A DNA stretch of 64,000 nt. It comes from Escherichia coli. Its GTDB lineage: Bacteria > Pseudomonadota > Gammaproteobacteria > Enterobacterales > Enterobacteriaceae. The stretch is from assembly GCF_001677475.2 (NCBI RefSeq), contig NZ_CP015229.1. One strand, 5' to 3'. Shown here piece by piece: positions 8,839 to 12,354 of the stretch. The translations under genes were made by a program, and so were the position numbers. Position 1 is the stretch's first letter. Every line of letters starts with the position of its first letter. The notes below the pieces were generated by a model. The model was not told where the DNA came from. It worked only from the letters and a program-made list of their open reading frames with translations, and ran no database searches.

Positions 8839-9129
8839 ATGGAATATAAAGATCCAATGCATGAGCTGTTGAGCAGCCTGGAACAGATTGTTTTTAAAGA
8901 TGAAACGCAGAAAATTACCCTGACGCACAGAACAACGTCCTGTACCGAAATTGAGCAGTTACGAAAAGGGACAGGGTTAAAAATCGATGATTTCGCCCGG
9001 GTTTTGGGCGTATCAGTCGCCATGGTAAAGGAATGGGAATCCAGACGCGTGAAGCCTTCAAGTGCCGAACTAAAATTGATGCGTTTGATTCAAGCCAACC
9101 CGGCATTAAGTAAGCAGTTGATGGAATAG
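8839..9129 (+). CDS. yiaG: XRE-type helix-turn-helix transcriptional regulator YiaG
   Basis: 96-aa ORF recognised as YiaG; HTH segment (IDDFARVLGVSVAMVKEWESRR). Confidence 0.85.
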   Translation: MEYKDPMHELLSSLEQIVFKDETQKITLTHRTTSCTEIEQLRKGTGLKIDDFARVLGVSVAMVKEWESRRVKPSSAELKLMRLIQANPALSKQLME

Positions 9130-9213
9130 ACTTTTATCCACTTTATTGCTGTTTACGGTCCTGATGACAGGACCGTTTTCCAACCGATTAATCATAAATA
9201 TGAAAAATAATTG

Positions 9214-9242
9214 TTGCATCACCCGCCAATGCGTGGCTTAAT
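9214..9242 (+). promoter_or_regulatory. cspA: cspA sigma70 promoter (-35 TTGCAT, -10 CTTAAT) with AT-rich UP-like region upstream
   Basis: TTGCAT at 9214..9219 and CTTAAT at 9237..9242 with 17-nt spacing; AT-rich tract at 9191..9212; placed about 160 nt upstream of the cspA ATG, matching the known long leader. Confidence 0.7.
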
Positions 9243-9250
9243 GCACATCA

Positions 9251-9409
9251 ACGGTTTGACGTACAGACCATTAAAGCAGTGTAGTAAGGCAAGTCCCTTC
9301 AAGAGTTATCGTTGATACCCCTCGTAGTGCACATTCCTTTAACGCTTCAAAATCTGTAAAGCACGCCATATCGCCGAAAGGCACACTTAATTATTAAAGG
9401 TAATACACT
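9251..9409 (+). promoter_or_regulatory. cspA: cspA long 5'UTR (cold-box, RNA thermosensor leader)
   Basis: Leader begins ACGGTTTGACGTACAGACC, containing the cold-box-like TGACGTACAGA at 9256..9266, and runs about 159 nt to the ATG; the cspA leader is an established cold-responsive RNA element. Confidence 0.75.
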
Positions 9410-9622
9410 ATGTCCGGTAAAATGACTGGTATCGTAAAATGGTTCAACGCTGACAAAGGCTTCGGCTTCATCACTCCTGACGATGGCTCTAAAGACGTGT
9501 TCGTACACTTCTCTGCTATCCAGAACGATGGTTACAAATCTCTGGACGAAGGTCAGAAAGTGTCCTTCACCATCGAAAGCGGCGCTAAAGGCCCGGCAGC
9601 TGGTAACGTAACCAGCCTGTAA
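9410..9622 (+). CDS. cspA: Major cold-shock protein CspA
   Basis: 70-aa [41 protein letters not shown]...; RNP1 motif KGFGFI and RNP2-like VFVHF. Confidence 0.97.
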
Positions 9623-9650
9623 TCTCTGCTTAAAAGCACAGAATCTAAGA

Positions 9651-9678
9651 TCCCTGCCATTTGGCGGGGATTTTTTTA
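9651..9678 (+). terminator. Rho-independent terminator of cspA
   Basis: Stem TCCCTGCC / GGCGGGGA followed by T-run TTTTTTTATT at 9671..9680. Confidence 0.8.
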
Positions 9679-9774
9679 TTTGTTTTTCAGGAAATAAATA
9701 ATCGATCGCGTAGTAAAATCTATTATTATTTTTGTGAAAAATAAATTTGGGTGCAATGAGAATGCGCAACGCCG

Positions 9775-9801
9775 TAAGAAAGGCGGGAATAACTTCCCGC
9801 C
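9775..9801 (-). terminator. 3' stem-loop / terminator downstream of hokA
   Basis: On the minus strand, stem TTCCCGCC / GGCGGGAA (plus coordinates 9782..9801) is followed by TTTCTT; lies 8 nt after the hokA stop. Confidence 0.5.
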
Positions 9802-9809
9802 GAAGACTC

Positions 9810-9962
9810 TTACTCTTTTAAATTGCAGGCTAAAAATGCCGCCAGCTCATAACTCCCCTGTTTAATATGCAATTCACACAGTGAATCTCTTATCATCCAG
9901 GTGAAAAATAAAAGCGTGAAACAAATCACTATTAAAGAAAGCAATCTATATTTCTGCGGCAT
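9810..9962 (-). CDS. hokA: Hok-family type I toxin (small membrane peptide), HokA-like
   Basis: 50-aa product MPQKYRLLSLIVICFTLLFFTWMIRDSLCELHIKQGSYELAAFLACNLKE: single transmembrane helix plus conserved Cys, characteristic of Hok/Gef peptides. The same frame extends upstream to an ATG at 10022 (70 codons). No IS element interrupts the locus. Confidence 0.8.
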   Translation of the reverse strand: MPQKYRLLSLIVICFTLLFFTWMIRDSLCELHIKQGSYELAAFLACNLKE

Positions 9963-10284
9963 TCCCAGCCCCCTGTGTTGATTTCCAACGAGTAAGAGGC
10001 TAACCTTATGGTGTCTATGCATAGAGGGGCCTCACTTTGATTTATAGTCAGGTGGGGCTTTTCTCTGTCTGCCTTTCGGTGAATACCTGAGACAAACAGT
10101 CTCAAGCACCCGTGGCTATTCTAGCTTAATAAGTTTGTTTCTTCTCCTTGATATAATCCTAAAAAAATCTCATAAAATTAATATATGAGATAATCTTTAT
10201 TCAGCAGAAGATTATTAAAGGTTGCTGTATTATTTAGCGATAAAAAAAGCCTGCCAGATGGCAGGCTTTTTAATAACGGCGTTA

Positions 10285-12354
10285 TTACTGCAACAGCGAA
10301 ATATCCGCAACGCGCAGGAACAGTTCGCGCAGTTTCTCCAGCATGGTCAGACGGTTGATACGCAATTCTTTGTCATCAACCATGACCATCACTTTATCGA
10401 AGAAGGCATCGACCGGTTCACGCAGCTCTGCCAGTTCGACCAGCGCATCCTGGTAACGACCTTCCGCAAAGTACGGCTCCAGCTTGTCACGTAGCACCAC
10501 AACCTGCATCGCCAGTTTAATTTCTTCCGGCTCTTTCAGAGTAGAGGCATTCACGCGATCGCTCAGCACTTCGTCAGATTTCGCCAGGATGTTAGATACA
10601 CGTTTGTTCGCCGCCGCCAGTGCTGCAGCTGCTTCCAGGGTACGGAAGTGCGATACCGCTTTCATGCGGGCATCGAAATCAGCCGGACGAGTCGGACGAC
10701 GCGCCAGTACCGCCTGGATGGTGTCAACGGTATAACCTTCGTCCTGATACCAGGCGCGGAAGCGACCGAGCATAAAGTCGATAACATCATCAACTACGTT
10801 GGCATTAGTCAGCTTATCGCCATACAGACGCACCGCTTCTTCGGTCAGCGTTTGCAGATCAAGGTTGAGGTTCTTCTCAACGATAATTCGCAGCACGCCA
10901 AGTGCGGCACGACGCAGCGCAAACGGGTCTTTGTCGCCTTTCGGATGCTGACCGATACCGAAGATACCCGCCAGAGTATCCATCTTATCAGCAATCGCCA
11001 GCGCACAAGCTACCGGGTTGGACGGCAGGTCATCACCGGCAAAGCGCGGCTGATACTGCTCATTCAGCGCGACGGCTACGTCTTCCGCTTCGCCATCGTG
11101 ACGCGCGTAGTGCATCCCCATAACGCCTTGGGTGTCGGTGAACTCGAAGACCATGTTGGTCATCAGGTCACACTTAGACAGCAGGCCCGCACGGGTTGCG
11201 TGGTTAACGTCAGCGCCAATCTGTTCGGCGATCCAGCCAGCCAGCGCCTGGATGCGGTCAGTCTTGTCACGCAGCGTACCCAGCTGTTGCTGGAACAGCA
11301 CGGTTTGCAGGCGCGGCAGGTTATCTTCCAGACGTTTTTTACGGTCGGTGTTGAAGAAGAACTCGGCATCAGCCAGACGTGGACGAACGACTTTCTCGTT
11401 ACCAGAGATAATTTGCTGCGGATCTTTCGATTCGATGTTGGCAACGAAGATAAAGTTCGGCAGCAGTTTGCCGTCGTTCGCATACACCGGGAAGTATTTC
11501 TGGTCACCTTTCATGGTGTAAACCAGCGCTTCAGACGGCACCGCGAGGAATTTCTCTTCGAATTTCGCGGTCAGAACGACCGGCCACTCCACCAGCGAAG
11601 CGACTTCTTCCAGCAGGCTTTCGCTTAAGTCAGCGTTACCGCCAATCTTACGCGCTGCTTCTTCGGCATCGGCTTTAATCTTCGCCTTACGTTCTTCGTA
11701 ATCGGCGATGACTTTCCCGCGCTCACGCAGAATTTCTGGATATTGATCGGCGTTGTCGATAGTGAATTCCGGCTCGCCCATAAAGCGGTGGCCGCGAATC
11801 ACGCGATCGGACTGAATGCCCAGAATGGTTGCCGGAATGACTTTGTCGCCCAGCAGCAGGGTCACGGTGTGCACCGGACGCACGAAGTGCACGTCGCTTG
11901 CACCCCAGCGCATCAGTTTCGGGATCGGCAGTTTCGCCAGCGAAGTCGCAACCATATTCGGCAGCAGTGCTTCAGTGCTTTCGCCCTTCACATGGGCGCG
12001 ATACAGCAGCCATTCGCCTTTATCGGTAGTCAGACGCTCAGCCTGGTCAACGGTAATACCGCAACCACGCGCCCAACCTTCTGCCGCTTTGCTCGGTTTG
12101 CCTTCAGCGTCGAACGCCTGGGCAATCGCCGGGCCGCGTTTTTCGATTTCACGATCCGGTTGCGCTTCCGCCAGGTTAGCTACTTTCAGCGCCAGACGAC
12201 GCGGAGCAGCAAACCATTGAACGGTGCCGTGTGCGAGGCCAGCGTTATCCAGCTCCGCAGTAAAGTTCGCAGCAAAGGACTCAGCCAGGCTGCGCAGTGC
12301 TTTTGGTGGCAGCTCTTCAGTGCCGATTTCCACCAGAAAAGTTTTCTCAGACAT
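10285..12354 (-). CDS. glyS: Glycine--tRNA ligase beta subunit
   Basis: 689-aa ORF recognised as GlyS ([23 protein letters not shown]...); immediately downstream of glyQ on the same strand. Confidence 0.97.

Follow-up and report, generated by a model that had tools for sequence, protein, structure and literature searches.

The cspA cold-shock promoter and transcript and the convergent hokA/sokA locus on an Escherichia coli chromosome

Promoter, leader and thermosensor mRNA of cspA

The window analyzed here, a stretch of 64,000 nucleotides from an E. coli chromosome (NCBI RefSeq assembly GCF_001677475.2, contig NZ_CP015229.1; all coordinates below are window positions unless noted otherwise), carries the gene order ghrB-yiaF-yiaG-cspA-hokA-glyS that is common to 5,425 of the 5,426 complete E. 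coli genomes as annotated in RefSeq. The cspA open reading frame (9410-9622, plus strand) encodes 70 amino acids with a clear match to the cold-shock domain (PF00313 CSD, E 4e-33) and differs from its K-12 counterpart by a single synonymous change (GAC here, GAT in K-12). We note that the RefSeq annotation of this protein, WP_000014594.1, is inconsistent: the majority of the listed genomes label it [quoted passage not shown], others “cspA”.

Upstream, the cspA promoter region is bounded by the intrinsic terminator of yiaG (9156-9180, plus strand), which reads from the sequence as a hairpin of CGGTCCTG-ATGA-CAGGACCG followed by TTTT, coincides with a Term-seq 3′ end mapped in K-12 (3719819, equivalent to window position 9180; Adams et al. 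2021) and separates cspA from upstream transcription. YiaG itself (8839-9129, plus strand), encoded directly upstream of cspA, belongs to the helix-turn-helix (HTH) proteins and matches the MqsA antitoxin family with 26 bits, below the cutoff of 30. Between this terminator and the promoter lies an AT-rich stretch (9185-9213, plus strand), identical to K-12, that we take to be the UP-element region of the cspA promoter. The core promoter (9214-9242, plus strand) was delineated by a hexamer scan and consists of a −35 hexamer TTGCAT (9214-9219) and a −10 hexamer CTTAAT (9237-9242) across a 17-nt spacer, with a TG dinucleotide at 9234-9235 that turns the latter into an extended −10 element, TGnCTTAAT. 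A scan for consensus sigma-70 promoters did not flag this site because its −10 hexamer lacks the A at position 2, and our promoter call therefore follows from identity with the mapped K-12 promoter and not from the scan. At the K-12 cspA promoter, footprints of FIS and H-NS cover positions −90 to +20 (PMC4877382).

The interval 9214-9409 had originally been predicted to hold the cspA promoter and leader, and this assignment held, with exact coordinates: the −35 hexamer starts at 9214, the cspA ATG at 9410 follows directly on 9409, the whole of 9130-9409 shows 100% identity to K-12 in an alignment with the K-12 derivative MC4100, including a leader identical to the K-12 cspA 5′UTR, and the transcript is recognized by the Rfam family RF01766 with 501 bits. 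As part of an overall explanation that also includes the relationship to the neighboring genes discussed below, we thus regard it as highly probable from the sequence that 9214-9409 represents the canonical sigma-70 promoter and the 160-nt 5′UTR of E. coli cspA; the identification of cspA as such is secure because the sequence is identical to the characterized K-12 element.

The 160-nt 5′UTR extends from 9250, where the RF01766 alignment begins, to 9409 on the plus strand and contains a cold box (TGACGTACAGA, 9257-9267), an upstream box (GCCGAAAGGCACA, 9373-9385) and a Shine-Dalgarno (SD) motif AAGG (9397-9400), all read from the sequence and named as is established in the literature on the cspA leader. 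The RF01766 model (“cspA thermoregulator”) matches the complete cspA mRNA of 428 nt end to end (9250-9677, plus strand; model positions 1-428 of 428) with an E value of 1e-142 and a score far above the gathering score of 78, well outside anything that chance would produce and in line with the literature on a full-length transcript of 428 nt with a 5′UTR of 160 nt and a thermosensor function (PMC9947658). Compared with the K-12 cspA thermosensor (RF01766; Giuliodori et al. 2010), the window has the same promoter, the same 5′UTR, the same transcript length of 428 nt and the same terminator. The cspA promoter, leader and thermosensor mRNA are already known and belong to the best-studied cold-shock elements of bacteria.

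The leader had been described beforehand as a cold-sensing RNA, and the cold-sensing function is indeed established, but the sensing element is the whole cspA mRNA and not the 5′UTR (from 9250/9251 to 9409) alone, given that the RF01766 consensus pairs leader positions with positions in the coding region. The predicted fold of the leader on its own (9250-9425) has a z-score of −0.77 and is thus no more stable than shuffled sequence, a value that is mute on function and would agree with a metastable sensor that folds together with coding sequence. When the 427-nt cspA mRNA (from 9251) was folded by equilibrium partition function at 10 to 42°C, the accessibility of the SD motif and the AUG remained unchanged; the published switch is kinetic and co-transcriptional and lies beyond such a calculation. 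Since equilibrium folding gave no cold-specific opening of the SD motif or the AUG, we take the thermosensor behavior of this RNA from the literature. According to published work, the cspA transcript adopts a different fold at low temperature that is stabler and better translated, and the CspA protein binds its own leader.

The cspA terminator and the hokA locus with its predicted mokA and sokA elements

The cspA transcript ends at an intrinsic terminator (9647-9677, plus strand) found by a terminator scan, with a 12-bp stem at 9647-9674 followed by a T-run to 9677 that gives 7 U residues. With a folding energy of −19 kcal/mol and a z-score of −5.0, this terminator looks strong, so that termination is predicted to be largely efficient, and its stem is kept in 12 enterobacterial species with changes confined to the loop. 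The terminator is followed by an AT-rich, imperfectly palindromic spacer of 69 bp (9678-9746) that separates it from the hokA RNA end and can form one long hairpin on either strand. Past the cspA terminator, this spacer shows one extra T and one A-to-G change relative to K-12. Synteny with Escherichia whittamii and with other genera is lost just past the cspA T-run where the spacer begins, and the spacer is the left edge of an Escherichia-specific hokA insert.

On the minus strand, hokA (9810-9962) encodes a toxin of 50 amino acids that is annotated in RefSeq and belongs to the Hok/gef family (PF01848, E 9e-24, 83 bits against a cutoff of 22), with two residues, G35E and N47K, that differ from K-12 HokA as read from the alignment. 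An in-frame upstream ATG extends this frame to an open reading frame of 70 amino acids (9810-10022, minus strand) that, by analogy with the hok family, would play the role of mokA. The hokA mRNA 5′ leader with the predicted SokA target region (9960-10111, minus strand) is matched over the full length of the RF01794 model (positions 1-157 of 157; 120 bits against a gathering score of 59) on the hokA-sense strand, starting with GGGUGCUUGAG and stopping at the hokA AUG. We note that RF01794, though named “sok antitoxin”, thus matches the strand of the hokA mRNA leader and not the plus strand that is expected to encode SokA, so that a strand label taken from this match would mislead.

Judging from folding and the analogy with plasmid R1 hok, the full-length hokA mRNA probably extends from 10111 to around 9740. 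Near this putative 3′ end, an fbi-like element GCACCC (9747-9752, minus strand) pairs with the mRNA 5′ end GGGUGC (10111-10106), and the minimum free energy fold of the RNA from 10111 to 9738 (−139.4 kcal/mol, z-score −6.7) is closed by precisely this helix, for which covariation offers no support as relatives are invariant at these positions. The closure may be a tac/fbi-type lock like the one known from R1 hok. Upstream of the fbi-like element, the minus strand carries a 3′ hairpin found by the terminator scan (9782-9801, GGCGGGAA-GUUA-UUCCCGCC) that also forms on the plus strand, with energies of −16.8 kcal/mol (minus) and −15.7 kcal/mol (plus) for 41-nt folds that include flanking pairs.

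The plus strand opposite the hokA leader would fit a sokA gene (9978-10066), placed by analogy with R1 sok, with a −35 hexamer TTGATT (9978-9983), a 17-nt spacer and a −10 hexamer TAACCT (10001-10006) that would drive an RNA from about 10013 to about 10066. This candidate SokA RNA ends in a hairpin plus UUUUCUCU, and the region 10007-10070 folds with −25 kcal/mol and a z-score of −3.8. With its Hok/gef open reading frame, in-frame mok-like frame, RF01794 leader, predicted helix closing the 5′ and 3′ ends and predicted antisense promoter layout, the locus resembles hokA/sokA as described previously (Pedersen and Gerdes 1999), of which an intact version is known from E. coli C, and hokA/mokA/sokA appears to be a structurally intact type I toxin-antitoxin locus in the window.

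The arrangement of cspA and hokA differs from the original prediction in part. The cspA promoter and leader had been placed back-to-back with hokA at a distance of about 130 bp from the hokA 3′ end, but the two genes lie tail-to-tail (convergent), so that promoter and leader sit at the end of cspA that faces away from hokA, and around 340 nt separate the leader from the likely hokA RNA 3′ end at the fbi-like element; a value of 130 bp would instead suit the stretch between the last base of the cspA coding sequence and this RNA end (9622 to 9747, about 125 nt). The further estimate of around 100 bp between the cspA terminator and the hokA 3′ hairpin proved accurate, as 107 bp lie between the two stems (9647-9674 on the plus strand and 9801-9782 on the minus strand).

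Disruption by IS150 and lineage-restricted adjacency of cspA and hokA

The K-12 sequence ceases to match the window at around 9994, within the predicted sokA promoter, where IS150 is inserted, and the literature states that sokA of MG1655 is disrupted by this element. While the K-12 locus is thus split within the sokA promoter and its hokA leader is cut, the locus in the window is uninterrupted. Across the complete E. coli genomes, hokA/sokA is uninterrupted in 2,845 of 5,426, and the other 2,581 have no contiguous match across the region. In the two interrupted genomes that we examined, the IS150 copies differ in their insertion site and point in opposite directions, one being of the K-12 type (around 9994) and the other, in strain Nord1, lying at around 10039.

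A further scan with the cspA 3′ end as query, in which each species was represented by a single genome, yielded 12 loci, and hokA was found 188 to 191 nt past the cspA stop codon only in E. coli, Escherichia albertii and a cryptic Escherichia lineage, Escherichia sp. E1V33. No hokA is present at cspA in E. whittamii, Citrobacter, Enterobacter, Raoultella or Klebsiella, which have other DNA between cspA and glyS, and in K. indica cspA is directly convergent with glyS. Because hokA adjoins cspA in only a few Escherichia lineages and similarity breaks after the cspA T-run, hokA/sokA looks like an Escherichia-specific acquired cassette in a variable cspA-glyS gap. This restricted adjacency, together with the interruption of the locus in about half of the complete E. 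coli genomes, argues against a conserved coupled function of cspA and hokA.

Plus-strand RNA across the hokA 3′ end

The transcript evidence discussed here stems from K-12, in which both the sokA promoter and the hokA leader are interrupted by IS150, and not from a strain with an intact locus. In the Term-seq data of MG1655, published as supplementary file 1 of Adams et al. 2021 with a separate sheet for each of three growth conditions, two plus-strand 3′ ends are listed three times each, presumably with one entry per condition sheet. The main 3′ end (3720313, window position 9674) falls into the T-run of the cspA terminator with scores of 157794 and 118320, and a second one (3720444, around window position 9806), annotated as “antisense hokA”, has scores of 3529 and 1115 (Adams et al. 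2021). The latter lies 5 nt past the hokA 3′ hairpin and reaches around 1% to 2% of the terminator-end score, bearing in mind that Term-seq scores are not strict molar ratios. Neither the supplements of SMRT-Cappable-seq nor an RNA-seq compendium nor RNA-seq/Ribo-seq data of EHEC contained transcription start site or full-length transcript data for this locus.

The same strand carries a small open reading frame annotated in RefSeq, ysaE, that overlaps the hokA 3′ end on the strand of cspA. The ysaE-like frame of the window (9762-9821) has 19 codons with a TAA at 9819-9821, whereas K-12 ysaE reaches a position equivalent to 9833; the difference of four codons stems from a TTG-to-TTA change that is synonymous in hokA and creates the TAA in the ysaE frame. 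An exact 32-mer of this early-stop allele is present in 1,585 of 5,426 complete E. coli genomes, and two full-length alleles are found in 761 and 2,026. One benchmark places ysaE among the experimentally verified small open reading frames (sORFs) of Weaver et al. 2019, and of the novel sORFs given in its smORFer ranking, ysaE has the highest translation initiation site (TIS) count.

ExcludonFinder moreover counts the pair of ysaE and hokA among the convergent excludons seen in 50% or more of 58 MG1655 transcriptomes (PMC12288877). The window shares with this MG1655 excludon the locus and the overlap of plus-strand RNA with the hokA 3′ end, but here the ysaE frame stops early and hokA keeps its own promoter, so that a two-sided overlap is possible. 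Both the ysaE-hokA overlap and the hokA/sokA locus are already published.

According to the original prediction, read-through from either gene would create RNA antisense to the other. This is supported in part for the direction from cspA into hokA, by the K-12 Term-seq end, ysaE and the excludon listing, whereas nothing supports the direction from hokA into cspA. Read-through from cspA into hokA is plausible and weakly documented in K-12, and it is not new. In our preferred explanation, cspA and hokA/sokA would be independent neighbors, with the toxin-antitoxin cassette having landed in the cspA-glyS gap. A small fraction of plus-strand RNA in K-12 would pass, or start beyond, the cspA terminator and end mostly just past the hokA 3′ hairpin, so that it would overlap roughly the final 60 nt of the hokA mRNA, comprising the fbi tail and the hairpin, and would carry ysaE. 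We infer that this RNA is mostly low-level cspA read-through and probably a bystander.

The most serious competitor, which we consider possible though clearly the less probable reading, is that the plus-strand RNA is a separate short ysaE mRNA made from a weak AT-rich promoter in the spacer region (9678-9760). The verified translation of ysaE with its high initiation-site read count and the predicted strength of the cspA terminator would fit this idea, and so would several AT-rich hexamer pairs in 9678-9760, among them TCGATC-16-TATTAT (9702-9729) and AGGAAA-19-TAAAAT (9689-9719), whose crude score of 8 equals that of the real cspA promoter. A crude hexamer count over 9660-9790 does not separate read-through from an independent promoter. 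Against a separate mRNA, the consensus scan flagged nothing promoter-like in this region. Moreover, the 3′ end at around 9806 lies inside the ysaE frame and no plus-strand 3′ end is listed downstream of the ysaE stop in the K-12 Term-seq data, which makes heterogeneous read-through likelier than a dedicated transcription unit. The frame is also stopped early in the 1,585 genomes mentioned above, including that of the window.

Possible cross-talk between cspA and hokA

A working excludon, in which cold-raised cspA mRNA and antitermination by CspA yield read-through RNA that pairs with the fbi-containing hokA 3′ tail and thereby alters processing, stability or translation of the hokA mRNA, seems very improbable to us. 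The plus-strand RNA over the hokA 3′ tail does exist in K-12, ysaE-hokA has been called an excludon, and the overlap covers a segment that, by analogy with R1 hok, would lock the mRNA in an inactive state. The amount of cspA mRNA rises greatly in the cold. Proteins of the Csp family are described in PMC9765468, citing Bae et al. 2000, as weakening intrinsic termination. On the other hand, our literature search found no experiment in which expression of cspA or hokA lowers the other, no effect on hokA and no cold-shock data for the locus; the downstream 3′ end amounts to only 1% to 2% of the terminator signal at 37°C; and the adjacency of cspA and hokA is limited to a few Escherichia lineages, while roughly every second E. 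coli genome has an interrupted hokA/sokA, due to IS150 in both of those that we inspected.

A more far-reaching version for strains with an intact locus, which we regard as more improbable still, would have cold-induced cspA read-through and CspA antitermination generate an RNA that pairs with the fbi tail of a stable hokA mRNA, so that cold shock would determine whether a dormant toxin mRNA is activated or destroyed. If true, a type I toxin-antitoxin system would thereby receive temperature as an input. K-12, the source of nearly all transcript data, has its hokA/sokA broken by IS150, and any cross-talk between cspA read-through and hokA is therefore testable only in strains with an uninterrupted locus, i.e., in about half of sequenced E. 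coli.

The converse scenario, read-through from hokA into cspA that would produce antisense RNA and lower cspA expression, is highly improbable, even though the hokA hairpin on the minus strand is followed only by UUUCUU and the reversed cspA terminator forms a less stable hairpin (−12.4 kcal/mol) lacking a U tract, through which escaping minus-strand polymerases could enter cspA. The Term-seq data of K-12 contain no minus-strand 3′ end in this interval and no antisense signal over cspA, although the hokA promoter is cut off by IS150 in that strain. The hok genes have weak promoters, whereas the cspA mRNA ranks with the most abundant ones, so that any stoichiometric effect of hokA on cspA would be negligible.

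Additional Rfam matches at 9595-9693 and 10162-10384 (rnk_pseudo, STnc370, leader families and others) stayed below the respective gathering scores and were rejected as terminator look-alikes. Among them, the terminator of glyS gave sub-threshold matches to STnc370 and several leader families on both strands; its hairpin (AAAAAAAGCCTGCCAGATGGCAGGCTTTTT, 10239-10277) is flanked by A and T runs on both sides and looks bidirectional.
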